The notes under the pieces are model-generated. The model was not told where the DNA came from. It ran no database searches and worked only from the letters and a program-made list of their open reading frames with translations. A DNA stretch of 64,000 nt. Origin: Patescibacteria group bacterium. GTDB lineage: Bacteria; Patescibacteriota; Minisyncoccia; Phycocordibacterales; Phycocordibacteraceae. A program made the position numbers and the translations under genes. Shown piece by piece: positions 8,023 to 61,896 of the stretch. Within the stretch, counting starts at the first letter, position 1. Each line of letters starts with the position of its first letter. Where the stretch lies: NCBI GenBank assembly GCA_013815345.1, contig JACDGK010000001.1, positions 3,076 through 67,075 of the forward strand, read 5' to 3'.

Positions 8023-10065
8023 ATGACTTCCGCACCAGCTCCGGCACCTGCCCCTGGCAACAATTCCCGCACCCCTCAAAATAATGAAGACCATACAATC
8101 TCGTCAGTGCATCCTTCTCGAAATGACAGCCGATCCCCGCGGCCGCCGATGCGCGGCGGGAGATCCGACGGCCCAGGCGGCAATCGCGGTCCGCGCGGAC
8201 CACGGCCTCCTTTCAGAAATAACGGTCCTCGACCACCCGCTTCTTCGAACGGACGCCCGGGAGGCGCACGCAGTACTAATTCATCCAGCCGTCCCGGACG
8301 CGTGAGCAGACAAATACAGCGAACGTTGCGGAGACTTCCAGCTCCCAACTCCGTCGCAAAGAAACTCGCTGATTATTTTCCTGACATCGCTCCGGACAAT
8401 GTCGTTCGTGTCATTCCCCTTGGCGGTGTCGAGGAAGTGGGACGCAACATGATTGCGGTAGAGACGCAAGGCGAGATATTTGTTTTTGACGCTGGTTTTC
8501 AATTTACCTCTGAAGACACTTCTCCCGGTGTCGACTATATTCTTCCAAATACAAAGTATCTTGAGCACAACGCTGACCGTGTAAAGGCGGTATTTATTAC
8601 GCACGGACACCTCGACCACATCGGTGCTATTCCATTTATCATGAACCGTTTCGGCAATCCACCGATTTACACGCAGAATCTTTCTGCAGTCATGATTCAG
8701 AAACGGCAAGAGGAATATCCCGACATGCCTGCACCAAATCTTGTCGTTGTCGAGCCAGGCTCAACGCACACCATTGGTAAGACCCGGGTGAAATTCTTCC
8801 CCGTCACTCACTCAATACCTGATTCGATGGGCATCGCCATCGAAACACCATATGGCAATGTCATCGCAACGGGCGACCTGAAGCTCGACCATGAAAATGG
8901 TATTCCAGTCGAACACGAGCAAAAGAAATGGGGCGAGCTTGGCGCTCAAAAGAACCTTATGTTCATTGCGGACTCAACCAATGCCGAACGCGATGGGTTC
9001 TCGATTCCCGAACGCCGTGTGACTGAGACACTCGAAGAGATCATCAAAACTGTCCAGGGTCGCCTTATCATCGGTACCTTCGCTTCGCAATTTGACCGCA
9101 TGGTGCATATCATCGAGAGCGCAGAAAAGTATGGCAAAAAGATCGTAACTGAAGGACGCTCGATAAAAACTAATCTCGAAATCGCTCAGCAAACCGGGCT
9201 TCTAAAGATCGACAAAGGCACGCTTATCAGTTCACAAGACATGGCCGACTACCCGCCGGATAAAATCGTTATTCTCGCAACGGGCGCGCAAGGTGAGGAA
9301 TTTGCAGCACTCATGCGCATCGCGACCAAACAGCACAAGTTCGTGCAGCTCACGCCCCGTGACACTATCGTGCTTTCATCCTCCGTTATCCCAGGCAACG
9401 AAATCTCCGTACAAAAACTCAAAGATAATCTGTATCGAAATGGCGTTACGCTCATTCATTACAAATCATCTGACGTGCACTCGACCGGGCATGGCAATAC
9501 AGGTGAGCTGGTCTGGATCAATAAGCAAGTAAATGCGACATTCTTCATGCCTGCCTATGGCTATTATTCTATGACTTCCTGTCATGCAAAAGCTGTGGAG
9601 CAATCAGGACGACCTCGTGAATCAATTATTCTTGCTGACAACGGCATGGTCATTGATATGATCGACGGTGAAAAGCTTTTCATTCATAAAGAGAAAGTAC
9701 CTTCTGCGCCACTCATCGTAGATGGCTTTGCTATCGGCGACATGCAGGAAGTGGTAATTCGTGATCGTCAGGCGCTTTCAAAGGATGGCATGTTCGTCAT
9801 TATCGCGACGGTGAATCTAAAGACTGGCAAACTTCGAAAGTCACCGGACATTATTTCCCGCGGATTCATTTACCTTCGTGAATCCCAAGAGCTCTTGAAC
9901 ACGGCACGACTTCTTATTAAGAAGACGGTTGAGGACTCGACGCGCAATATGAACCCCGTTGATCTCGACTTCGTAAAGAATGAGATCTCGGATGTGATGG
10001 CGGGATATCTTTTCCAAAAGACCAACAAGGCGCCGATGGTTATTCCGGTGCTGATCGGAGTGTAG
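8023..10065 (+). CDS. rnj: Ribonuclease J (metallo-beta-lactamase/beta-CASP) with a roughly 120-aa Arg/Gly/Pro/Ser-rich N-terminal extension
   Basis: HGHLDHIG motif, RVIPLGGVEEVGRNM start of the core, beta-CASP and C-terminal domain. The N-terminus PAPAPAPGNNSRTP...RGGRSDGPGGNRGPRGPRPPFRNNGPRPP is low-complexity. Confidence 0.85.
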   Translation: MTSAPAPAPAPGNNSRTPQNNEDHTISSVHPSRNDSRSPRPPMRGGRSDGPGGNRGPRGPRPPFRNNGPRPPASSNGRPGGARSTNSSSRPGRVSRQIQRTLRRLPAPNSVAKKLADYFPDIAPDNVVRVIPLGGVEEVGRNMIAVETQGEIFVFDAGFQFTSEDTSPGVDYILPNTKYLEHNADRVKAVFITHGHLDHIGAIPFIMNRFGNPPIYTQNLSAVMIQKRQEEYPDMPAPNLVVVEPGSTHTIGKTRVKFFPVTHSIPDSMGIAIETPYGNVIATGDLKLDHENGIPVEHEQKKWGELGAQKNLMFIADSTNAERDGFSIPERRVTETLEEIIKTVQGRLIIGTFASQFDRMVHIIESAEKYGKKIVTEGRSIKTNLEIAQQTGLLKIDKGTLISSQDMADYPPDKIVILATGAQGEEFAALMRIATKQHKFVQLTPRDTIVLSSSVIPGNEISVQKLKDNLYRNGVTLIHYKSSDVHSTGHGNTGELVWINKQVNATFFMPAYGYYSMTSCHAKAVEQSGRPRESIILADNGMVIDMIDGEKLFIHKEKVPSAPLIVDGFAIGDMQEVVIRDRQALSKDGMFVIIATVNLKTGKLRKSPDIISRGFIYLRESQELLNTARLLIKKTVEDSTRNMNPVDLDFVKNEISDVMAGYLFQKTNKAPMVIPVLIGV

Positions 10066-10073
10066 TTGCGCGT

Positions 10074-10173
10074 CGCAGGCATAGCCATAAAAAGGTACGC
10101 ATAATTTTCTGCTGAAAATTTGCTCGCTCTCGCGCGGTCACGCTCCGAGAGCCCTTTTTATGGCTATGCCTGC
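10074..10173. repeat. Long inverted repeat (21-bp arms GCAGGCATAGCCATAAAAAGG / CCTTTTTATGGCTATGCCTGC, about 58-nt spacer containing a nested GC-rich palindrome)
   Basis: Read directly in the gap between the convergent rnj (+) and glycosylase (-) genes. Probably a bidirectional terminator or structured element. Confidence 0.5.
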
Positions 10174-10191
10174 TTCGCTCCCCTCGATATC

Positions 10192-11064
10192 CTAGTGCGG
10201 CAGTCGGAAGTGACTTCCATTCTTCTGTATTAAATGCTCACTCTCAAGTCTTTGGATTTGTATTTTTATTTGGTCCTTCCGGTCATGACCCAACAATCTA
10301 GAAAGTTGAGCCACAGTTTGAGGACCGGAAATAAGAGCTCTGAGAATTGCGCCGCGGACTTCTCGATTTGAACCCGCGAATGTTGATTGTTTTGTATAGG
10401 TGGTGCTTTTAGTATTGTTGCGAACTCCCGAACGTTTCAGGTGAGCGCCATAGTCCATGAGCGCGGAGTACCATTCGCGGGCATTTCCTTTCGGGAGTGC
10501 TTTCGCTAAAATCGCCAGAATATCTTTATCTGCGACTTCTTTCTGATCATGAAAAAAATGATGCGTGATGACCGTACGCACGTTTGTTTCGATACATACG
10601 ACATCTAAATTGTACGCGAAAGTGGCCACTGCTCGGGCCGTATAGGGACCGACCCCTCGTAACGATTCCAGCTCCTCGACCGAGTCAGGAAGTTTTCCTT
10701 TATATTCACTTACTATCTGTTTCGCTGCTTCATGCAGCATTTTTGCGCGACGATTGTACCCAAGCCCTTGCCACTCTTTTAGGACATCCCCGAGCGATGC
10801 TTTTGCGAGGGCATGAACCGTTGGAAATTTTTTGAGAAATTCTTTATAAAACGGCTTTACTCTATCAACTTGTGTCTGCTGCAGCATCACTTCAGACACC
10901 AAAATCTTATAGGGATCCGTTGTCTTCCGCCACGGCAAATCATGTCTCCCTTCTTTCTCATAGTATTTCCAGACGATTCGCTGAAAATCTCGAATGTTGC
11001 CAGAGGATCCTTTTACCATGTTCCGAGGAGGGGCTCTCGGAGCTGGTCTGGCTTGGCCCGCCAT
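10192..11064 (-). CDS. HhH-GPD DNA glycosylase (MutY/EndoIII-like) lacking the 4Fe-4S Cys motif, with a C-terminal winged-helix-like tail
   Basis: HhH-GPD core LQQTQVDRV...LRGVGPYTARAV. Only one Cys in the region where MutY/Nth carry C-X6-C-X2-C-X5-C. Confidence 0.65.
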   Translation of the reverse strand: MAGQARPAPRAPPRNMVKGSSGNIRDFQRIVWKYYEKEGRHDLPWRKTTDPYKILVSEVMLQQTQVDRVKPFYKEFLKKFPTVHALAKASLGDVLKEWQGLGYNRRAKMLHEAAKQIVSEYKGKLPDSVEELESLRGVGPYTARAVATFAYNLDVVCIETNVRTVITHHFFHDQKEVADKDILAILAKALPKGNAREWYSALMDYGAHLKRSGVRNNTKSTTYTKQSTFAGSNREVRGAILRALISGPQTVAQLSRLLGHDRKDQIKIQIQRLESEHLIQKNGSHFRLPH

Positions 11065-12157: not shown

Positions 12158-12844
12158 CTACTTAGCTTTTGGCCAGCGCTCGGCAGCAGGGGGCCAGATC
12201 TTGGTAAGGGGGTGTTCGTCACAGGCGTGCGGAAGAGCGGGACATACGTAGCGACCATATAGAACGAATCCGTTATTTACATATTTCCAATCTTCTTTTG
12301 GCATAAGTGCTTCAAGGTCTTTCGAGATTTTCGTGAGGTCAGTATTGCTCGTGAGATCGAAACGAAGCGATAAGCGTCGTACATGCGTGTCGGTCGGGAT
12401 ACCTTCCCAGATATTGTAAAGTTCACCGAGTATGACGTGTGAAGATTTGTACGCAACACCGGGCAAGCGAATCAATTCCTCAAGCGTTTTAGGAATCTCG
12501 CCCCCAAACTCATCTTGAACGAGTTTTCCGGCGGCAATGACATTCTTTGCTTTCGCTGCAGGAAATGTTATCGAAGAAATCTCACGTACAAACATATCAA
12601 AATCAGCATTCGCAAAGTCACGTGCGGTTCGATATTTCTTATACAATGTGTCGGTAACATGATTTACTTTCTTATCCGTGCACTGTGCAGAAAGCATTAC
12701 TGCGGCCACGAGTTGGAAAGGTGTTTCGTAGGTGAGCTCGGTAACCGGCGTAGGGTAGGTTTTTTTAAGATACGCAAGAATAAGTCGTGCGCGCTGCACG
12801 CGTTCTTCAGTCGTTGAGAGGACAGGAAGCAGCAATGCGCTCAT
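12158..12844 (-). CDS. nth: Endonuclease III-like HhH-GPD glycosylase (Nth family) with an incomplete Cys cluster
   Basis: HhH motif LIRLPGVAYKSSHVIL and a catalytic Lys/Asp region. The C-terminus has only C-X6-C (CPALPHAC) instead of four Cys. Confidence 0.7.
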   Translation of the reverse strand: MSALLLPVLSTTEERVQRARLILAYLKKTYPTPVTELTYETPFQLVAAVMLSAQCTDKKVNHVTDTLYKKYRTARDFANADFDMFVREISSITFPAAKAKNVIAAGKLVQDEFGGEIPKTLEELIRLPGVAYKSSHVILGELYNIWEGIPTDTHVRRLSLRFDLTSNTDLTKISKDLEALMPKEDWKYVNNGFVLYGRYVCPALPHACDEHPLTKIWPPAAERWPKAK

Positions 12845-12866
12845 AGTACTTTGACTTTAGATGCAA

Positions 12867-14054
12867 TTAAAATTCAGAAAGATCCCGCGAGTATTTCCGG
12901 AATGCAAATTGATAGAGAAGCGAGAGCAATACCCCGCCTGCGGTAGCACCCAAGACTATCTCAACAACCGACCCAATCACAGGAACAAGACCGATGAGGT
13001 AGAGCACTAGGACTCCCAGAATTGCGGTGCGCCACGAAACGTTTCTTTTTTTACGCAACGCTCGCATGAGCGCTGCCCCAGCGAGCACGGCAGCATACAC
13101 ATACGAAAGAAGGAGGAAAAGAATATATGCGGCGCCGATGATAAAGGCTATACCGATCCCCACGAACGAAACGATGAGGAAAAGGAATAAGACCGGTACG
13201 GCAACAAATGCCGCAAATCCAAGCAAAGTCATGAGAATAAATCGTTCAGGGGTGCGGGTGAGCGCTGCCTCTACCACCCGATCAGTAAGCAACGGAAAGA
13301 GTCCCGCAATGAGCCCTACCGCGACAAGTGCTGCAGTAATACGAACAAGAACAAATACCCAAAATCCGGCGAGGGCAAATGTCTTCGCCTGCTGTGCCGT
13401 TGGAAGGTAGGGTTCTGCGCCGATGTAGGTTACTCCTTTATCTACCATCGCTGAAGCAGCTATATCCGCCTGTGCCGGTGCGTTATATTTTAATGCACCA
13501 TGGATGATTGTTCCTGGACCCACTGACACACGATCCGATGCGACCACTTGCACGTCGCCATTGAATTCACCCGAGAGAGATACGGTGGCACCATAAATAG
13601 TTACGGGACCGTTCGAGCCGTTGGTCATTTGCACCGTGCCTCCTCCAATGTATGTGTTCTTTGCTTTTCCCGATACATTTACGATGCCTCCTGCTGCCAT
13701 AAAGTCGCCGTTGACCGTGTCCTCAAGATTTATACGGCCACCAATAACCCGCACGTCTCCTGCTATGGGTTTATGAATATCAATAGTTCCGCCAGCAAGC
13801 AGTGCGTCGCCTTGTATCGGTGCGGAAAGAGTAAGCGTACCGCCGATGGCGCTCAAATCTGCTAACAGAGGAACGTTTATCGTCACTTGACCGCCGGCAT
13901 AGTACGCGTTATTCGGAGTTGATGAGGAAACCTCGATGACGCGGGCACCTTCTACTGTTTGAGCCTGAGAAAGCTCCGGAATAACGAACATGAGCAGGGC
14001 AAATGTACCTACTAAAACGACGCGGGCACTGAGGATTATCGTCTGAGGCTTCAT
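12867..14054 (-). CDS. Membrane protein: signal peptide plus Gly-rich beta-helical (bactofilin/DUF583-like) repeats fused to a C-terminal polytopic TM domain
   Basis: Repeating GG[TR]I/V..G.. units (GGTLTLSAPIQGDALLAGGTIDIHKPIAGDVRVIGGRINL...) followed by 5-6 hydrophobic helices. Confidence 0.55.
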   Translation of the reverse strand: MKPQTIILSARVVLVGTFALLMFVIPELSQAQTVEGARVIEVSSSTPNNAYYAGGQVTINVPLLADLSAIGGTLTLSAPIQGDALLAGGTIDIHKPIAGDVRVIGGRINLEDTVNGDFMAAGGIVNVSGKAKNTYIGGGTVQMTNGSNGPVTIYGATVSLSGEFNGDVQVVASDRVSVGPGTIIHGALKYNAPAQADIAASAMVDKGVTYIGAEPYLPTAQQAKTFALAGFWVFVLVRITAALVAVGLIAGLFPLLTDRVVEAALTRTPERFILMTLLGFAAFVAVPVLFLFLIVSFVGIGIAFIIGAAYILFLLLSYVYAAVLAGAALMRALRKKRNVSWRTAILGVLVLYLIGLVPVIGSVVEIVLGATAGGVLLSLLYQFAFRKYSRDLSEF

Positions 14055-27542: not shown

Positions 27543-29336
27543 TTATTTCTGTTTGTTTCGTGCTTTGACACGCTCGCTCTCATTCAAAAACTGTTTACGC
27601 AAACGCACACTGAGTGGAGTAATCTCAAGGTATTCATCTTCTGCCATTATTTCGAGGCCGCGTTCGATAGTGAGCGTAAAAGGAGGAACAAGATTGATCG
27701 CTTCGTCGTTACCGGAAGAGCGCACGTTTGTGAGATTCTTTCCTTTCGTAGGGTTCACCATCATTTCCTCGCCCTTTGACGTATTGCCGATAACCATACC
27801 TTCATATACTTCAATGGCCGGCATAATATACATAACTCCCCGCTCTTGAAGGCCCCACAGTGCATAGCCGAGTGCCTTGCCTGGCGCCATCGAGATCATC
27901 GAGCCCACCTGACGCTTCTTGATGTCTCCTGCGTACAGCTTAAAGCCGAGCACGCGCGATGAAAGGATACCCTCCCCTTTTGTGTCGATAACGAATTGGT
28001 TGCGATACCCCAGAAGTCCGCGGGTCGGCCCTTCGAACGTAAGGCGGACGAGATCGTCGCTCTGAGTAAGGTTTTGAAGCACAAATGCTCGGGTACCGAG
28101 TCGTTCAATGATCGCACCTTGGAATTCACTTGGTGTATCAATAATCACTTCTTCGAATGGCTCAAGTTTTTTGCCTTCCTCTTCACGGATAATGACCTGC
28201 GGCTGCGAGACCTGGAGCTCGTATCCCGACCGCCGCATGTTTTCGAGAAGTATCGCAATGTGAAGTTCACCACGTCCTGATACTTTGAACGAGTCAGGGG
28301 AAACGAAGTCAATTTTGAGTCCCACGTTTACTTCAAGTTCACGTTCAAGATACTCGCGAAGTTGGCGAGAAGTGACAAATTTTCCTTCACGTCCCGCAAA
28401 AGGAGAGTTGTTCACAAGGAAGTTAAGCGTAATGGTCGGTTCGTCGATAGCGATTGCCGGAAGTGCTTCGGCATTTTGGTCGGTGGTGATCGTTTCGCCG
28501 ATGAAAATGTCCGAGAGGCCCGCAAGCAACACAATATCCCCTGCCTGTGCTTCAGCCACCTCCACACGCTCAATTCCCTTGAAAGAGAAAATCTTGGTGA
28601 GTTTTCCTGTACGGGTTTCACCATCTGGCTTTTTTACAAATACCTGCTCGCCTACATGAACAACACCCTCGTAAATGCGAGCGACAGCAAGACGACCAAG
28701 GAAATTGTCATAGCCAAGGTTAAAGGATTGGATACGAAGAGGCTGTGCAATGAGCTCAGGCGTTGCCGCAGACGCCACATGCTCAAGAATGACGTCGAGA
28801 AGCGGGGTAAGGTCTTTTCGTTCATCATCAAGGCTGCGCATTGCTACCCCCTCACGGCCTATTGAATAAACAGTGGTGAAATTCGCCTGTTCATCCGAAG
28901 CACCGAGCTCGAGAAAGAGTTCGAGCACCTGTTCCTCTGCCCAAGCAGGATTAGCGGCAGCCTTATCTATTTTATTTAAAACGACAATGGGTTTAATGCC
29001 GAGTTCCAGTGACTTTTTGAGTACAAATCGTGTTTGTGGCATCGGACCTTCTTGCGCATCAACGACGAGAAGCACAGAATCAATAGAACGAAGTACGCGT
29101 TCGACTTCAGAACCGAAATCCGCGTGGCCCGGTGTATCGACAATATTGATTTTGGTTCCTTTATATTCTATTGAAGTATTTTTGGAGTAAATGGTGATGC
29201 CGCGCTCTAGCTCGATAGAGTTCGAGTCCATGGAAATACCCTCAACCGCCGCACCTGTTTGACGCATCAAAGCATCCGTCAAGGTAGTCTTGCCGTGGTC
29301 AACGTGCGCGATAATCGCGATGTTTCGGATTTCCAT
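27543..29336 (-). CDS. typA: Translational GTPase TypA/BipA
   Basis: AHVDHGKTTL G1, DTPGHADF G3 and NKID G4. Length and domain order match BipA. Confidence 0.9.
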   Translation of the reverse strand: MEIRNIAIIAHVDHGKTTLTDALMRQTGAAVEGISMDSNSIELERGITIYSKNTSIEYKGTKINIVDTPGHADFGSEVERVLRSIDSVLLVVDAQEGPMPQTRFVLKKSLELGIKPIVVLNKIDKAAANPAWAEEQVLELFLELGASDEQANFTTVYSIGREGVAMRSLDDERKDLTPLLDVILEHVASAATPELIAQPLRIQSFNLGYDNFLGRLAVARIYEGVVHVGEQVFVKKPDGETRTGKLTKIFSFKGIERVEVAEAQAGDIVLLAGLSDIFIGETITTDQNAEALPAIAIDEPTITLNFLVNNSPFAGREGKFVTSRQLREYLERELEVNVGLKIDFVSPDSFKVSGRGELHIAILLENMRRSGYELQVSQPQVIIREEEGKKLEPFEEVIIDTPSEFQGAIIERLGTRAFVLQNLTQSDDLVRLTFEGPTRGLLGYRNQFVIDTKGEGILSSRVLGFKLYAGDIKKRQVGSMISMAPGKALGYALWGLQERGVMYIMPAIEVYEGMVIGNTSKGEEMMVNPTKGKNLTNVRSSGNDEAINLVPPFTLTIERGLEIMAEDEYLEITPLSVRLRKQFLNESERVKARNKQK

Positions 29337-52209: not shown

Positions 52210-54153
52210 ATGGCACATCTCAATAAAAAAACACTAGCTACAAAAATGACAAGCGTGCTTGGCATCATCCTTTTTATTATTCCTCTTTTTGGCAGTTTTT
52301 CTCCCCTCCCTGCACACGCAACCGCACCAGTGGTGTCGATAGGCGGCTCAAACGACGTCCAGTATTCGACGGTTCTTGATTATTCAGCAAATACTATTCT
52401 TCTCAAACAAGGCGGATATGTCGCTACCTCGACCTACACCTGTGTGATCGCTACGCAAGGCTGCGTGCTCGTTCCTTCATCCACGACAACCCTCGCTCCC
52501 AGCGCACTCGCGAGTACTTCTAATTTCGTAAGTCCGGACTACAGCGAAGCATTAGTTACCACCTACGTTGCAAACTCCAACCCCACGGAGCAGCTTTATG
52601 GTATTCAAAATAATGTTCTCGCTCCTCAAGCTACCCTTCCCGCTCTGAAGGGTCTTATCACAAACGTACACTGGTCGGGCGACAATACCGTTCTCATCAT
52701 AAAAGAAAGTGACGGCTCAACACAAAAATATAATCGCACCACTAATACCCTCACAACTTTAAAGACGTCGCTCCCCAGCGGGGCTGCCTGGATAACGCTT
52801 TCTGCTGATGGTCGATACATCGCCTACTACATTCCGGCAGTTATTTCGACCGGCAAGCGCACGTTTGGCGTGATAGATACGAATCTAGATATCGGTTATA
52901 CGCTCGAGTCTACTATTTCTTACTGGGATTTGCTTTCTGAAGGAGTTCGTATCTTTGCCTTCTCTCCGGATAGCACCAGGCTTCTCTATCTCGATGATCG
53001 GAGCGGATACCAAACCTTGTACGCAGTGAATATGAAAGATCTTGCGACTACAGGCCTCACCGGCACACAGGTAACTGCAAAGAAATATACGATCGAAGAT
53101 ATGCAGTGGGAAGATAACTCCTCGATTGTCTTCAGTGCAAACCGAGATAACCCTATGCAATGGTCGCTGTATGAGCTCAACCTCGGCACCTACACCCTAA
53201 AGAAAATTGTTGACTCTCCCGCCTACAATCAACCGATGCATGCTTTAGGTTCAAACATTCTGTTCCAGACAGCTGACGCTAATGGCCGTCTCACCAAAGT
53301 CTTTAACACGCTCACAAAGACTGTTTCAGCCTTCCAGACTCTGGGTCTTGATCAATCGAAAGTAGGCACGACGAATCAAGTCGTGCAGCAGGGTGGTGTC
53401 TATGGCGCCTACCTTCCGACTACCGTTGCTACTTCTACCCTTCTGGTGTGGCTTCATGGAGGTCCTGATCGCCAGACCAGCCTCGACTACAACTCTTACA
53501 TGAGCTATGGCGGCTATGACTGGGTGCTGAACAAAGTACAAGCATCAGGTGTTCCGGTATTAAAACTCGATTACCCAGGAAGCATAAATCACGGCACTGC
53601 CTTTGCGCAGTCGATTAAAAACGGCGTGGGCACGGTTGACGCAAGCACCACTATGCAAGCGATAAAAGATTTCTCCGCAGCCCACGGTTTCAAGAACGTC
53701 TATGTGATGGGTAACAGCTATGGTGGCTATCTAGCACTCAAACTCCTTGTTTCTTATCCATCCCAAATCAAAGGTGCCTATTCCCTCTCTGGTGTTACCG
53801 ACTGGCAAACACTACTCACCAATATTCCTTCATCTATCTTTAGTCTCGACTTCAATGGCTCACCAAATCCACTGAATCAAGCGTTGTACAACAAAGCGTC
53901 GATCGTTGCGAATATTCCTAACATCGGTACTCAAAAAGTCATCGTCACTCAGGGAGACGCCGACAGTGAAGTTCCATACGCACAGTCACAACTCATTGAT
54001 GAAGCCCTTGTCGCCGCAGGAAAAAATGTCGAGTACAGCACACTTGCCGGCGAAGACCATATCTACAAACTCCCTTCTTCCTACACACTCGTGTGTAACC
54101 AAGCTCTTGAGCTTGTCGGTCTTCCAAGCAATTCACTCTGCACGATGCATTAG
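52210..54153 (+). CDS. Secreted S9 family serine peptidase (prolyl oligopeptidase/acylaminoacyl-peptidase type) with an N-terminal beta-propeller
   Basis: Signal peptide, GxSxG nucleophile elbow (MGNSYGGYL) and a C-terminal Asp/His region. Confidence 0.75.
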   Translation: MAHLNKKTLATKMTSVLGIILFIIPLFGSFSPLPAHATAPVVSIGGSNDVQYSTVLDYSANTILLKQGGYVATSTYTCVIATQGCVLVPSSTTTLAPSALASTSNFVSPDYSEALVTTYVANSNPTEQLYGIQNNVLAPQATLPALKGLITNVHWSGDNTVLIIKESDGSTQKYNRTTNTLTTLKTSLPSGAAWITLSADGRYIAYYIPAVISTGKRTFGVIDTNLDIGYTLESTISYWDLLSEGVRIFAFSPDSTRLLYLDDRSGYQTLYAVNMKDLATTGLTGTQVTAKKYTIEDMQWEDNSSIVFSANRDNPMQWSLYELNLGTYTLKKIVDSPAYNQPMHALGSNILFQTADANGRLTKVFNTLTKTVSAFQTLGLDQSKVGTTNQVVQQGGVYGAYLPTTVATSTLLVWLHGGPDRQTSLDYNSYMSYGGYDWVLNKVQASGVPVLKLDYPGSINHGTAFAQSIKNGVGTVDASTTMQAIKDFSAAHGFKNVYVMGNSYGGYLALKLLVSYPSQIKGAYSLSGVTDWQTLLTNIPSSIFSLDFNGSPNPLNQALYNKASIVANIPNIGTQKVIVTQGDADSEVPYAQSQLIDEALVAAGKNVEYSTLAGEDHIYKLPSSYTLVCNQALELVGLPSNSLCTMH

Positions 54154-54166
54154 TCAAGATATCAGA

Positions 54167-54202
54167 AAAATCGTACCTGTCTGAAAGAGCCAGGTACGAT
54201 TT
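54167..54202 (+). terminator. Terminator hairpin AAAATCGTACCTG-loop-CAGGTACGATTT
   Basis: 12-bp stem directly after the S9 peptidase stop. Confidence 0.45.
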
Positions 54203-54317
54203 CTCTATATAAATTGAAGAGTTGGACTCTTCAGAAACAAAGTGTAATCTTCAGACAGAGCGGCACTTGGCCGCTAGTTCTATTCGTTTCTGAATCTCAC
54301 TCAAGGGAGAAAGTCCT

Positions 54318-55460
54318 ATGATCGATACATTCAAGAAAGCGGCGCCAGAAGTGCTCACCGGAATTCGCGAAGAAATGGCTGTCCGGCGTACGACCGAAGT
54401 TTTTCTGCTGTTCGTTAATGGCAGCCAGTTCGACCATCTCATCTTCCAGACCACAAGCAAGCTCGGCGTCTACTGTCTTGTGGCCGATCCTGCGTCGGTT
54501 ACGTCAGAGGATGTGCGAGCTCTGAGTCCGAAGGGCATCATTCTGTCAGGAGGCCCGGCGTCAGTCGTTTCCGAACCACCGCGTTTCGACAACGCGATCT
54601 TTGATCTCGACATTCCGGTACTCGGAATCTGCCTCGGCTTTCAAATGTGGGCAAAGTATGCCGGCATCCAAGTGGTGGAAGGGACGAGTAAGGAGTTTGG
54701 CATGAATGACTTGCGCGTCTTAAACCCCAGCGGCTTGCTCGAAGACTTCGAGCAAAACACAACGACTCCCGTTCTTCAAAGTCACGGTGATCAAGTACTG
54801 CTGGATGAACGACTCACCCTTCTCGGCTCCACCACCTTCCATGGTGATGCAGTCGCGGTGTCTGCGGCTTCACTCGGACATCTTCACGGTGTCCAGTTCC
54901 ATCCCGAAGTCACCGAGACTTTGAAGGGTTCGAAAATTTTCGAGAACTTCTGCTTTGGTATCTGCGGCGCAAGGGATCGATTTTCGGCCCATAATATTGC
55001 CGAACAAAAAATTGCGACTCTTCAGAAAAAAATCGACGACAAGAAAGTACTACTCGCTCTCTCAGGTGGTGCTGACTCGTCGACGGTTGCCTATCTTCTG
55101 AAGCATGCCACCATCGGACGAGGCAACAGATACAACGGGGTGATTCCATTCACTCGGCATATGAGCATGGAGGCTTGCTGCGGCAAGAATCCTGTCTACC
55201 ACGTAGGCAAGCTTTACACCGCCATCTGCTCTCTCATTTCCGATGAGATTCATCGTCTTGTAGGACTTGAGACATACGTGTATCTGACCTCTCAGATGGG
55301 CAGAAGTCTGTCGGACCCATGGTCTGCATGCGTGGAGGTATGCGGCGGAGATACAACATCTGCGCAACGTCAGATGATTGAAGCAATCCTCGAGCGCAAC
55401 TTGGCAAATGCCAACGAAACTACCCAGAAAATCGTGAAAGGAGAATTGAACCTATTCTGA
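54318..55460 (+). CDS. guaA: GuaA-like protein: class I glutamine amidotransferase plus the start of a PP-loop ATP pyrophosphatase. The C-terminal half is not GuaA-like, so this is possibly a pseudogene.
   Basis: GATase GICLGFQMW and VQFHPEV, PP-loop LLALSGGADSSTVAYLL. After LLKHA the sequence no longer resembles GuaA and stops at 380 aa. A +2 frame shows a GGLLRQES fragment resembling the GuaA VDNGLLRLNE motif. Confidence 0.55.
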   Translation: MIDTFKKAAPEVLTGIREEMAVRRTTEVFLLFVNGSQFDHLIFQTTSKLGVYCLVADPASVTSEDVRALSPKGIILSGGPASVVSEPPRFDNAIFDLDIPVLGICLGFQMWAKYAGIQVVEGTSKEFGMNDLRVLNPSGLLEDFEQNTTTPVLQSHGDQVLLDERLTLLGSTTFHGDAVAVSAASLGHLHGVQFHPEVTETLKGSKIFENFCFGICGARDRFSAHNIAEQKIATLQKKIDDKKVLLALSGGADSSTVAYLLKHATIGRGNRYNGVIPFTRHMSMEACCGKNPVYHVGKLYTAICSLISDEIHRLVGLETYVYLTSQMGRSLSDPWSACVEVCGGDTTSAQRQMIEAILERNLANANETTQKIVKGELNLF

Positions 55461-55474
55461 AGGGATCGATCCTC

Positions 55475-55510
55475 AGTACCCATGTCGTAACGACATGGGT
55501 ACTTTTTTTA
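55475..55510. terminator. Bidirectional terminator AGTACCCATGTCG-TAA-CGACATGGGTACT followed by TTTTTTT
   Basis: Perfect 13-bp stem between the convergent guaA-like and S51 genes. Confidence 0.6.
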
Positions 55511-55511
55511 T

Positions 55512-56207
55512 TTACAGATTGAAAGATTCTTCAGGATTAAGTTCCCTTTTTGTTCCATCTGCAAGATAAATAACACACGACTTTGTGCCAGCGCATAAAG
55601 CGCTGCCATTTTCTATAACTAGACCACTTTCTTCTGGTAAGCAAACAATCGGCAAGTTATTATCAATTGCCCAAGTTCTAAATCTGTCATTCTGTTCATC
55701 CTTAAAGTGACAGGCTACCGAAAAATTATTTAGAAGATTAAATCCCGATACGTCTTCCAGACCTATTTTATTTTCATCATCATGAGTATTAATTTTCTTA
55801 CCCATTATGATTGCACCGGCACTGCCTCCGTAAACTTGACCACCAGCTTCAATGTATTGAATTAAAATATCAGCAAATCCAGAATTTTTAAGCTCCTGCA
55901 TAAGGCTCCATGTATTGCCGCCTCCGATATAAATCCCATTAAATTCTTTAAGGGTTTCGAGAGTATATTTTGATGGGTCGTCTACCGTTTCGAACTGAGT
56001 ATCCGCTCTTTCATGAAGTTCGGTAATGCTGTTCATCCACAAATGCGCGGTAGGATATAGCTTGTGTCCGCGGAGAGCTATGGGTATGTATAAAAAGCGT
56101 CCATTTTTTGGTAATGTACTAAAAAAAAATTTGTCGAGGGGGAATGATTGCTTCTCATTACCACCCCCCGACAAATATATTCGGTTGTTCTCCTTTATGT
56201 TTTGCAT
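55512..56207 (-). CDS. Peptidase S51 family (dipeptidase E/cyanophycinase-like)
   Basis: GGGNTWSL...GGSAGAII matches the S51 catalytic Ser region. Confidence 0.75.
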   Translation of the reverse strand: MQNIKENNRIYLSGGGNEKQSFPLDKFFFSTLPKNGRFLYIPIALRGHKLYPTAHLWMNSITELHERADTQFETVDDPSKYTLETLKEFNGIYIGGGNTWSLMQELKNSGFADILIQYIEAGGQVYGGSAGAIIMGKKINTHDDENKIGLEDVSGFNLLNNFSVACHFKDEQNDRFRTWAIDNNLPIVCLPEESGLVIENGSALCAGTKSCVIYLADGTKRELNPEESFNL

Positions 56208-57382
56208 GTTTGTATCGCTTTGCGCAGCTCGTAAATGTTAGCGTTACAAATATACACCAAGCGGTCGAAATAGGCTTGACTCGTCTCACTACTTCGAGGT
56301 GGCGGAAGCCCTAACGTCTCACAGACCCTCAGATTAACGAACCTTTCGATCTCCAAGAGGGCAAGCTGGACGGCGGCCTCGCGGTTAATCGACGGCTTGA
56401 TGAATTGCGCCCAATAATCGAAATAATACGCAAGGATGCTATATACATCCGAACCGTAGTACTTCTCACTGAGCACTTTCGCAAACCGCCTGAACTGGAG
56501 ACCTGAACCCTTGTTTGCAACTTGGACGCCGCATAGCACCAAGAGCGCAATCGTCCGACATGAGTCGAACATTTCTCGCGTCCCATTAGCAGTCCATGGC
56601 ATAAGCACATCGAAGTAGGAATCGGTTTTGTTTATGGCCCATGCCATTCTTTCAAGACCGAAGCCGATATCGCTGATTGGAATCGCCGGACGGTTCGCTT
56701 GGGGAATAAGAAGATAAGCGGCATCTCCAAGCTCAAGCCCCCCGTAGGAAAAAAAGAGCTCAAGTGCCGAAAATTTCCCGGTTCCCCAATCATTAACGGA
56801 TGTTCTCATGACGACAATGAAGTCGTTCATATGAAGACCGAGCTTTGAAAGAATTGTGCACCAGTGGTCTACTGACCGCAGATGCTCTGCAAACTCTGCC
56901 CCCATCTTTTCCGTGCAAACGTTCACGAAGGAGGTTGATGTCCCTTCTTGCGACTCGACATGCGGTTGAAACTGCATACGAACACATGGCTGCGCCACAA
57001 ACACTTTGTCATTTCTGATTTTTTGATTGCGATGAATGACATCATCAAACATCTGCACACCAGCAATGACCAGGTCAGTCTGACCCTCGAAATTCGCAAT
57101 GTTGCGCGGAGGTGCCAGATCAAAGCCTACCGAACGAAAGTATTCGCTCATCCGTGTGCTGATTTGTACAGGGGTCAGCATCTTCTTCCGCTTGGTATAT
57201 GTGCGGAAAGGATAACCTCCTTTGTCGCACTTATGCCAGCCGCAGACCGAGACATCCATTTTGGTAGATGGCTTAGAGAAAAAAGTTCTGTCACAGGAGC
57301 TACACGAGCGCCCCTGCCATCCTCTTTCGGCCATGAATTCATTCACGGCCTTAGAGGTATCCACAATTGTTGTTTCAGACAT
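56195..57382 (-). CDS. Stand-alone alanyl-tRNA synthetase catalytic-domain paralog (AlaRS-N-like) with a Cys4 insertion
   Basis: LVIAGVQMFDDV (AlaRS motif 1 region FTNAGMNQFKDV), QPCVRMQ (QRCVR), DIGFGLERMAWAINK (DTGMGLERL motif 3) and RTIALLVLCGVQVANKGSGLQFRR (start of the tRNA-recognition domain). It lacks the editing and C-Ala domains. Insertion CSSCDRTFF...CGWHKC. Confidence 0.6.
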   Translation of the reverse strand: MSETTIVDTSKAVNEFMAERGWQGRSCSSCDRTFFSKPSTKMDVSVCGWHKCDKGGYPFRTYTKRKKMLTPVQISTRMSEYFRSVGFDLAPPRNIANFEGQTDLVIAGVQMFDDVIHRNQKIRNDKVFVAQPCVRMQFQPHVESQEGTSTSFVNVCTEKMGAEFAEHLRSVDHWCTILSKLGLHMNDFIVVMRTSVNDWGTGKFSALELFFSYGGLELGDAAYLLIPQANRPAIPISDIGFGLERMAWAINKTDSYFDVLMPWTANGTREMFDSCRTIALLVLCGVQVANKGSGLQFRRFAKVLSEKYYGSDVYSILAYYFDYWAQFIKPSINREAAVQLALLEIERFVNLRVCETLGLPPPRSSETSQAYFDRLVYICNANIYELRKAIQTCKT

Positions 57383-57470
57383 GGGTGTATCTCCAGTTAA
57401 GGTTTCAATGTTCTAAATCTGTACTCTGCCTACAAACTAACGATAATTCTCTTTTTTGTCAATATAGACC

Positions 57471-57499
57471 TTGACTAAATCAATAATTGATATTAATAT
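57471..57499 (+). promoter_or_regulatory. Putative sigma70-type promoter for serS (TTGACT - 17 nt - TAATAT)
   Basis: Consensus-like -35/-10 spacing about 60 nt upstream of the serS ATG. No T-box leader was seen. Confidence 0.3.
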
Positions 57500-57560
57500 T
57501 CCGACCTGTCATCTAAACGTAGTTCATTGAAACCAACAACCCTTTTTAGGAGACAAAGTT

Positions 57561-58850
57561 ATGCTCGATATCCGATTCATTCTCGACAACGTCGAACTGG
57601 TCAGACAAAACACGCAGGACCGGAACGCCAACGCTGATGTTGACAAGACAGTTGCTCTATACGGGCAATTGAAGCAGAAAAGACAGAGTCTCGAAGAGGC
57701 TCAATACCGATCCAACCAGATCTCTGGACAATTCAAGGGTGCCGACGAAGTGACCCGCGAACAACTTAAGACAGAGGTTGCAGGTCTCAAACAGATCATG
57801 GCAACACTTAAGGAAGAGATCGCGGTCATCGAAAAGGAGTACACCGAGGAAGTGCTCAAGATTCCCAATCTTGTCGCTCCCGATGTTCCTTCCGGCAAAG
57901 ATGAGCATGGCAACGTGCCCATCAAGCATGTCGGTGAGCCCACCAAGTTTGGCTTCAAGCCACTCGATCATGTCGAGCTCGGCAAAAAGTTGGACATCCT
58001 GGACTTTGAGGCGGCGGCGAAAGTCACTGGCTCGAAGTTCTACTTCTTGAAGAACGAAGCTGTTCTTCTCGAACTCGGTCTCATCCGCTTCGCACTGGAC
58101 CTGGCGATCAAGCACGGCTTTACGCCGGTGACAACGCCAGAACTTGCTCGTGACGAGATCATCACAGCTTCTGGATTCTCTCCGCGAGGACCCGAAAGCC
58201 AGATCTACTCCCTTACAGAAGGAGACCTGAGCCTTATCGGTACCGCCGAGATCACCATCGGTGGTTATCTGGCCAAGACCGTGATTCCAGAAGAGGATCT
58301 TCCGATCAAGATCTCCGGCGTCAGTCATTGCTTCAGAACTGAAGCTGGTAGCGGCGGTCGTGAGAGCAAGGGACTTTATCGGGTACATCAGTTCAGCAAG
58401 GTCGAACTCTACCAATTCGTTCATCCCGACAAGAGCGCAGCCGCTCACGAAGAGATGCTCGCAATCGAGGAAGAGTTTTATCAAGCCCTGAAACTTCCCT
58501 ACCGCGTTTTGCTCATGTGCAAGGGCGATCTGGGAACCCCCGCGTACCGGAAGTACGACATCGAGGCGTGGATGCCTTTTGTCGGCGAAGGTGGCGGATA
58601 TGGTGAAGTGACGTCCGCGTCAAACTGCACCGATTTCCAAGCACGACGCTTGAACACCAAGTTCAAGAACAGTGCTTCTGGTAAGACTGACTTCGTCCAC
58701 ACCCTCAACGGCACAGCTGTTGCTGTTACTCGAACGATGCTCGCCATCCTCGAGAACAACCAGCAGGCCGACGGTACGGTACTCATTCCCGAAGTGTTGC
58801 ATCCCTACGTTGGGGTGCAGAGCATCAAACCAAAAAACAAGAAATTCTAA
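57561..58850 (+). CDS. serS: Seryl-tRNA synthetase
   Basis: N-terminal coiled-coil arm, class II motif 2 HCFRTEAGSGGRESKGLYRVHQF and motif 3 GTAVAVTRTMLAILENN. Confidence 0.9.
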   Translation: MLDIRFILDNVELVRQNTQDRNANADVDKTVALYGQLKQKRQSLEEAQYRSNQISGQFKGADEVTREQLKTEVAGLKQIMATLKEEIAVIEKEYTEEVLKIPNLVAPDVPSGKDEHGNVPIKHVGEPTKFGFKPLDHVELGKKLDILDFEAAAKVTGSKFYFLKNEAVLLELGLIRFALDLAIKHGFTPVTTPELARDEIITASGFSPRGPESQIYSLTEGDLSLIGTAEITIGGYLAKTVIPEEDLPIKISGVSHCFRTEAGSGGRESKGLYRVHQFSKVELYQFVHPDKSAAAHEEMLAIEEEFYQALKLPYRVLLMCKGDLGTPAYRKYDIEAWMPFVGEGGGYGEVTSASNCTDFQARRLNTKFKNSASGKTDFVHTLNGTAVAVTRTMLAILENNQQADGTVLIPEVLHPYVGVQSIKPKNKKF

Positions 58851-61822: not shown

Positions 61823-61896
61823 TGGCTGCGAGACTAGGACTCGAACCTAGATAACGACCTCCAGAGGGTCGCGTCCTACCATTAGACGATCTCGCA
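61823..61896 (-). tRNA. tRNA-Gln (anticodon CUG), CCA encoded
   Basis: Manual cloverleaf: acceptor UGCGAGA/UCUCGCA (U1-A72), D-arm GUCU-AAUGGUA-GGAC, anticodon arm CGACC-CUCUGGA-GGUCG, variable loop UUAU, T-arm CUAGG-UUCGAGU-CCUAG, discriminator G, CCA. Confidence 0.8.

Follow-up and report, generated by a model that had tools for sequence, protein, structure and literature searches.

A chimeric open reading frame composed of guaA and archaeal-type methionine adenosyltransferase sequences in a member of the Patescibacteria, with its junction, native locus and probable origin

The open reading frame (ORF) located at 54318..55460 on the forward strand of a 64-kb stretch of contig JACDGK010000001.1 (positions 3,076 to 67,075; assembly GCA_013815345.1, Patescibacteria group bacterium; the whole stretch is referred to as the window) begins with ATG and comprises 380 codons and a stop. 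Its product is the NCBI protein MBA3788829.1 (locus tag H0X32_00320), which is annotated as 'hypothetical protein'. The ORF is a chimera, in which codons 1-266 are derived from guaA, the gene of guanosine monophosphate (GMP) synthase, and codons 267-380 from the 3' end of a gene for an archaeal-type methionine adenosyltransferase (MAT), the enzyme that synthesizes S-adenosylmethionine (SAM). Reduced genomes are well known to contain chimeric ORFs that arose by illegitimate recombination; the instance described here is so far undescribed and carries no annotation other than 'hypothetical'.

The open reading frame and its two parts

The guaA-derived part (54318..55115, +; codons 1-266) was delimited by comparison with Pfam, NCBIfam, the Protein Data Bank (PDB) and relatives. 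It contains a clade-specific N-terminal extension, a complete class-I glutamine amidotransferase (GATase) domain, a linker and the start of the ATP pyrophosphatase (ATP-PPase) domain, of which the first strand, the PP-loop and the first helix are kept. Pfam places the GATase domain (PF00117) at amino acids (aa) 34-213 with an E value of 2.2e-28, and its Cys-His-Glu triad is complete (Cys105 in GICLGFQMW; His195 and Glu197 in VQFHPEV). Other GuaA motifs are NGSQFDH near the start and LLKHAT at aa 260-265. The PP-loop SGGADSS (55062..55082, +; aa 249-255) is the last catalytic motif of GuaA that is kept. An earlier motif reading of this DNA (the original prediction) had assigned to the 380-aa frame the motifs of GuaA through the PP-loop, and all of these are present.

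The similarity to GuaA ends shortly after the PP-loop. NAD_synthase (PF02540) is matched at model positions 14-53 of 242 only and TIGR00884 at positions 1-40 of 310, the NCBIfam GuaA equivalog NF000848 is aligned at model positions 6-237 of 512 with 185 bits (cut-off 400), and GMP_synt_C (PF00958) has no Pfam match in the ORF. Regarding the GMP synthases in the PDB, their residues ~17-257 align to aa ~26-267 of the ORF. With a 538-aa relative as the tblastn query the similarity stops at aa 268. About 270 residues of GuaA are absent, namely the ATP-PPase core, the site for xanthosine monophosphate (XMP) and the dimerisation domain; the view that this is a truncated guaA unable to encode GMP synthase, in which the GATase domain and the PP-loop are kept, is borne out.

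The first 268 aa are 71% identical to a full-length 538-aa GuaA from the Patescibacteria, and the best 120 matches in a word-indexed protein search were GuaA proteins of ordinary length (530-540 aa) from Patescibacteria (Minisyncoccia/Paceibacteria) with at most 71% identity. This value can be set against those of other genes in the window: the closest relatives of TypA/BipA (27543-29336) show 91-95% identity and those of the seryl-tRNA synthetase SerRS (57561-58850) 96-98%, whereas those of the guaA-derived part do not exceed 71%. Two explanations are conceivable: guaA may be uncommon in, or not yet sampled from, the nearest relatives, or its rate of evolution may be much higher.

The MAT-derived part (55116..55457, +; codons 267-380), identified by PF01941, NCBIfam, PDB and relatives, corresponds to the last 114 residues (~306-419 of 419, or ~28%) of an archaeal-type MAT and begins inside the conserved motif GDEGvvGRGNR. 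PF01941 is matched in frame by aa 264-376 at model positions 279-395 of 395 (E=1.9e-27), five NCBIfam MAT models are matched by their C-terminal ends with 87-93 bits (cut-offs 435-577), and the solved archaeal MATs 4L4Q, 4HPV and 6S81 are matched at residues ~284-405. This part shares 96% of its amino acids and 85-88% of its nucleotides with the intact MAT of two related loci (L039 and L008). Absent are ~305 N-terminal and central residues, which build the active site and the dimer. The sequence following LLKHA is thus unlike GuaA, as had been noted, but it is not degenerate, being the well-preserved C-terminus of another enzyme.

The original prediction also regarded the ORF as a guaA decaying by frameshifts, with the true C-terminus readable in another frame downstream. 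The sole support for this explanation is the short string GGLLRQES in the +2 frame; the string does exist, but it is an off-frame reading of the conserved MAT codons for HMSMEACCGKNP, and its resemblance to GuaA is due to chance. Past aa 268, profile and tblastn comparisons (the latter at E≤1) found no GuaA in any frame of the window, the in-frame tail is 96% identical to intact MATs with a ratio of non-synonymous to synonymous substitutions (dN/dS) of ~0.02, and the 345 nt from the junction to the stop are too short for the ~270 missing GuaA codons. The probability of frameshift decay is accordingly negligible.

A Shine-Dalgarno-like sequence, AAGGGAG (54303..54309, +), can be read 8 nt 5' of the ATG; a sigma-70 consensus promoter was not detected in 54100-55600. 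Between the chimeric ORF and the convergent gene for an S51 peptidase lies a hairpin (55475..55503) with a perfect 13-bp stem, AGTACCCATGTCG-TAA-CGACATGGGTACT, and T/A runs on either side, which by its appearance looks like a bidirectional intrinsic terminator. No riboswitch or other RNA element was found at the locus. The sole Rfam family at gathering score within the window is a tRNA gene (61826-61896, -).

The junction and the native MAT locus

The recombination junction was located at 55113..55121 (+), where codons 266-268 (ATC GGA CGA) encode Ile-Gly-Arg. Homology to the MAT loci starts at 55114-55116 in ~70 pairwise blastn comparisons, and homology to GuaA ends at 55121 according to tblastn. 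Compared codon by codon, the relatives of GuaA read ...SGGSDSSTVAYLLKHAT-x-GR-EQL... and those of MAT ...SGDEGVV-GR-GNRYNG... at the join, and the window reads ...SGGADSSTVAYLLKHAT-I-GR-GNRYNG.... Both parent families thus have GGxCGx (the Gly-Arg codons) at the crossover, the microhomology amounts to no more than ~8 nt, and the reading frame is kept. To the left of the breakpoint, none of the MAT loci was homologous to the window. Such a junction is the signature of illegitimate recombination of the slippage or end-joining type, not of frameshifting or of domain shuffling at a linker.

The junction was found in this source only. A degenerate pattern consisting of the PP-loop followed 11 codons on by GRGNRYNG matched once in the window, whereas neither the metagenome collection nor the species-representative genomes of GTDB contained a match. 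A phmmer search of 1.84 billion representative proteins yielded 6654 matches; among the matches listed, either aa 1-~275 or aa 263-380 were covered, and none covered both. The genomic contexts of guaA in the two closest GuaA matches do not include a MAT gene. Relatives with a similar 380-aa architecture, which the original prediction had envisaged as a sign of a functional truncated family, were likewise not found in the collections searched.

Genome and metagenome collections were scanned at the DNA level with the 117-residue tail, and 96 loci were recovered. In about 60 of these the tail belongs to an intact MAT gene of ~419 aa, whose end it forms, and the MAT of L039 matches the NCBIfam MAT models over their full length. 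The order of genes in the relatives is the same as in the window, i.e., MAT, a convergent S51/PepE-like peptidase, a gene of ~400 aa resembling alanyl-tRNA synthetase (AlaRS), and SerRS. Window positions 55116-58848 are collinear with L039, L008 and L010 at 85-88% nucleotide identity, which holds nowhere else in the window, and the MAT end of the chimera has its position, stop and terminator in common with the intact orthologues. Because of this collinearity and the sharp start of the homology, the 3' end of the MAT gene is in its native place, and its ~305 5' codons have been exchanged for 266 codons of guaA.

The rest of the native MAT block (55512..58850) was characterized with Pfam, NCBIfam and PDB. 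It is made up of the S51/PepE-like peptidase (55512-56207, -), the AlaRS-like protein of 395 aa (56195-57382, -) and SerRS (57561-58850, +); the S51 peptidase and the AlaRS-like protein had correctly been named as neighbours before. The 395-aa protein belongs to no Pfam family, always adjoins the S51 peptidase and lies near SerRS. Its resemblance to the catalytic domain of archaeal AlaRS is weak (TIGR03683, E=2.7e-8, aa 15-137; PDB 2ztg, E=0.005, aa 15-264), and the protein is possibly a paralogue of amino-acid ligases. A candidate second pair of an S51 peptidase and a 395-aa gene at 12158-14054 was rejected since no similarity was found.

The block of four genes (MAT, S51, AlaRS-like, SerRS) is kept in more than 60 Patescibacteria loci at 83-88% DNA identity, with dS values of 0.6-1.1 and a dN of ~0.02, and its flanks are never homologous between lineages. 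Its coordinates are 55116-58850 in the window, 9089-13734 in L039, 1864-6507 in L008 and 155-4796 in L010; it also occurs in L013, L040 and L041. SerRS is either divergent from the AlaRS-like gene or located upstream of MAT, and repeated intergenic segments of ~90 bp occur at rearranged joints in L013 and L016. The non-homologous flanks had suggested a mobile cassette that was inserted into guaA. This idea was rejected because the dS and dN values indicate a very conserved cluster in diverged genomes. The 3' half of guaA was not found beyond SerRS by tblastn of the window.

The MAT gene has also been damaged in other lineages. It is cut to a 3' remnant, with the end beside S51 kept, in L006 (7077-7474), L069 (1572-2120), L079 (549-941) and the L089 group (L089 at 9932-10350, also L032 and L091), where neither N-runs nor contig ends can serve as an explanation. 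Possible remnants in L099-L101 (~150-340) and L103 (125-265) lie no more than ~160 bp from contig ends and are less certain. Frameshifts are present in the MAT genes of L007 (~9910) and L092 (~300). These observations suggest that SAM synthetase has been lost recurrently in this family of the Patescibacteria. Apparent lesions in L005 (5815-5914) and L009 (1778-1807) were discarded as N-runs (scaffold gaps or masking), which are neither deletions nor frameshifts, and the 97-aa 'AdoMet_Synthase' database ORFs from these two loci are artefacts of the N-runs.

A loss of MAT throughout the clade, considered when three contexts looked broken, was rejected, as the DNA scans show about 60 loci with an intact 419-aa MAT. 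With the 117-aa tail as query, the word-indexed protein search had returned only 19 proteins, all of at most 193 aa, despite the existence of dozens of 419-aa orthologues with 75-96% identity; the length and coverage bias of such a search can mimic clade-wide gene loss. Nothing useful was found in the literature on archaeal-type MAT in bacteria of the Candidate Phyla Radiation (CPR).

Constraint, assembly support and probable origin

Both halves of the chimera are intact. Among 116 full-length relatives, 48 columns reach a conservation of 98% or more, and the guaA-derived part deviates at none of them; of the 102 columns with 90% or more it deviates at two (H130N, P223S), which is as good as or better than in intact proteins. 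Regarding the MAT-derived part, no deviation was observed at the 53 columns conserved at 90% or more, no residue is unseen in intact relatives, and dN/dS in comparison with intact genes lies at 0.014-0.05 (dS 0.6-1.1), which equals the values between pairs of intact genes. The chimera is free of stops, frameshifts and excess non-synonymous change, which fits a very recent event as well as selection that continues to act on both halves. The event looks very recent because neither half shows relaxed constraint. If the 114 codons have evolved neutrally, their lack of any novel residue would put the neutral divergence since the event, by a rough estimate, at no more than ~0.015 substitutions per site, which is a few percent of what separates the chimera from its closest sampled relative.

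An AlphaFold2 model built on an alignment of GuaA and MAT-fragment homologues had a mean predicted local distance difference test (pLDDT) score of 84. The GATase domain (aa 1-220) is predicted with pLDDT above 90, and the helix with the PP-loop remnant with lower confidence. The segment aa 270-294, which follows the GRGNR motif in native MAT, scores below 50 and is predicted to be disordered, and aa 295-375 are modelled as a small alpha-beta-beta-alpha unit.

With GuaA deprived of its ATP-PPase core, XMP site and dimerisation domain, and MAT of its first ~300 residues, the sequence of the 380-aa product allows neither GMP synthase nor SAM synthetase chemistry. A new function of the fusion would have to be of another kind, such as a GATase that works as a glutaminase or supplies ammonia, by itself or together with a separate partner as in two-subunit GMP synthases, with the MAT module stabilising, oligomerising or binding a ligand. 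The intact ORF with its ribosome-binding site (RBS) and terminator, the kept triad (Cys105, His195, Glu197), the lack of a substitution excess in either half, the compact unit predicted for the MAT remnant and the similarity of the GATase domain to stand-alone subunit A (PRK00758, E=4e-31; PDB 2d7j and 1wl8) all speak for such a fusion, but recency explains the lack of decay equally well. GATase domains of the GuaA type are essentially inactive without a substrate-loaded ATP-PPase domain. A gene for an ATP-PPase subunit was not found within the window, aa 270-294 are predicted to be disordered, no homologue with the same architecture or junction exists in any of the collections searched, and both cuts lie inside domain cores (after the first ATP-PPase helix and within GDEGxxGRGNR), a pattern typical of accident. 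We therefore regard a functional new fusion as unlikely. Slightly more doubtful still is a newborn functional fusion retained for a new activity, regulation or binding, or a role of the 3' ~100-145 MAT codons, which several other lineages have likewise kept after losing the remainder of the gene, as an independently useful small domain.

An artefact, i.e., a chimeric read, a library artefact or a mis-join within the same or a related genome, would account for a junction that is unique to one source and for the intactness of both halves, which joining of intact genes in silico or in vitro predicts; microhomology junctions are typical of template-switching chimeras. However, the identical 380-aa protein is encoded in two assemblies of the source sample, one being the NCBI metagenome-assembled genome (MAG) with a contig of 193.5 kb and the other the Logan assembly. 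A Logan contig of 137 kb (SRR11719862) is 100% identical to window positions 17543-39336 (21.8 kb) and covers the junction by coordinate extrapolation; the junction lies deep within long, otherwise identical contigs. A mis-join by the assembler is improbable because a stretch of no more than 8 nt in common falls far short of what could mislead a k-mer assembler, and an artefact of one assembler is unlikely. The G+C content, overall (GC) and at third codon positions (GC3), is continuous across the join, the block to its right is collinear with relatives, the 55 kb to its left are an ordinary Patescibacteria gene set, and 5' truncations of MAT arose independently in other lineages. All kinds of artefact taken together, this explanation appears improbable.

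The ORF is probably a young, lineage-specific chimeric pseudogene that originated from one microhomology-mediated rearrangement, by which both guaA and MAT were inactivated. A single illegitimate recombination would have joined guaA at codon ~266 to MAT at codon ~306, in the simplest version by a deletion between guaA and MAT genes on the same strand. The crossover would have made use of the Gly-Arg microhomology (GGxCGx, up to 8 nt) and have been in frame by chance, and the RBS and start of guaA and the stop and terminator of MAT would now bracket an ORF of 380 codons. Of the two fates that the original prediction had offered, the pseudogene is favoured, whereas a repurposed amidotransferase is unsupported, given the unique architecture and the cutting of both parents in their domain cores.

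Both functions would be lost at this locus, and GMP and SAM presumably come from a host, a partner or other genes; the genome is small and probably that of a host-dependent organism. An ATP-PPase partner, a second guaA, guaB and a bacterial metK were not found among the ~45 genes scanned in the window.

Several observations weigh against this interpretation. No MAT locus with guaA within 10 kb is known from the loci recovered, so that the one-deletion scenario has no direct ancestral template; a relative in which guaA and MAT adjoin, and from whose arrangement a deletion could yield the chimera, was looked for and not found. There is no suspicious substitution in either half, as purifying selection on a functional fusion would likewise predict, and the ORF is fully open with a good RBS and terminator. 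The loss of GMP and SAM synthesis was assessed within 64 kb of the genome. The junction is known from assembled contigs, and a chimeric-library artefact or a minority structural variant is possible.

If the pseudogene interpretation holds, the locus represents reductive gene loss resolved to the nucleotide, in which one event removed two core functions (GMP and SAM synthesis) and left an open ORF. The case strengthens the evidence that members of this family can dispense with the archaeal-type SAM synthetase and have lost it repeatedly, which would imply an uptake of SAM, or of precursors of it, from a host or the surrounding community. Reading of motifs mistakes such an ORF for a variant of GuaA, annotation pipelines label it 'hypothetical protein', and chimeric ORFs of this kind can inflate the number of 'novel domain architectures' in metagenomic protein catalogues.

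Comparison with known systems

The N-terminal 266 residues are collinear with GuaA (EC 6.3.5.2; E. coli 1GPM; Patescibacteria P0001 and P0002), including the triad and SGGxDSS, whereas the chimera lacks ~270 residues, scores below the equivalog cut-off and is not classifiable as GuaA. Compared with archaeal-type MAT (4L4Q, 4HPV, 6S81; L039, L008), the C-terminal 114 residues are 96% identical and in the orthologous position, but only the last ~28% of the enzyme, from the middle of GDEGvvGRGNR, is held by the chimera.

The stand-alone GATase subunit (2D7J, 1WL8, 2LXN) resembles the chimera in being a complete GATase of the GuaA type without an attached functional ATP-PPase. It differs in size, having ~190 aa, whereas the chimera has 380 aa with 165 extra residues of unrelated origin, and PRK00758 gives the chimera 108 bits against a cut-off of 198. 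In contrast to the archaeal split GMP synthase, the chimera originates from a fused bacterial guaA, and no gene for a partner ATP-PPase or for GMP_synt_C was found in the 64-kb window.

The metK gene has been lost in Chlamydia, which is host-dependent and imports SAM. In most Rickettsia species, which import SAM, metK is pseudogenised (PMC5615194), and the recurrent MAT remnants of this Patescibacteria family are a parallel to this. The present case differs from these in that the enzyme is of the archaeal type, that the 5' truncation is fused in frame to another broken gene, and that no SAM transporter was identified in the window. It resembles them in that a SAM synthetase has been lost or degraded in a reduced and, in the present case probably, host-dependent lineage.

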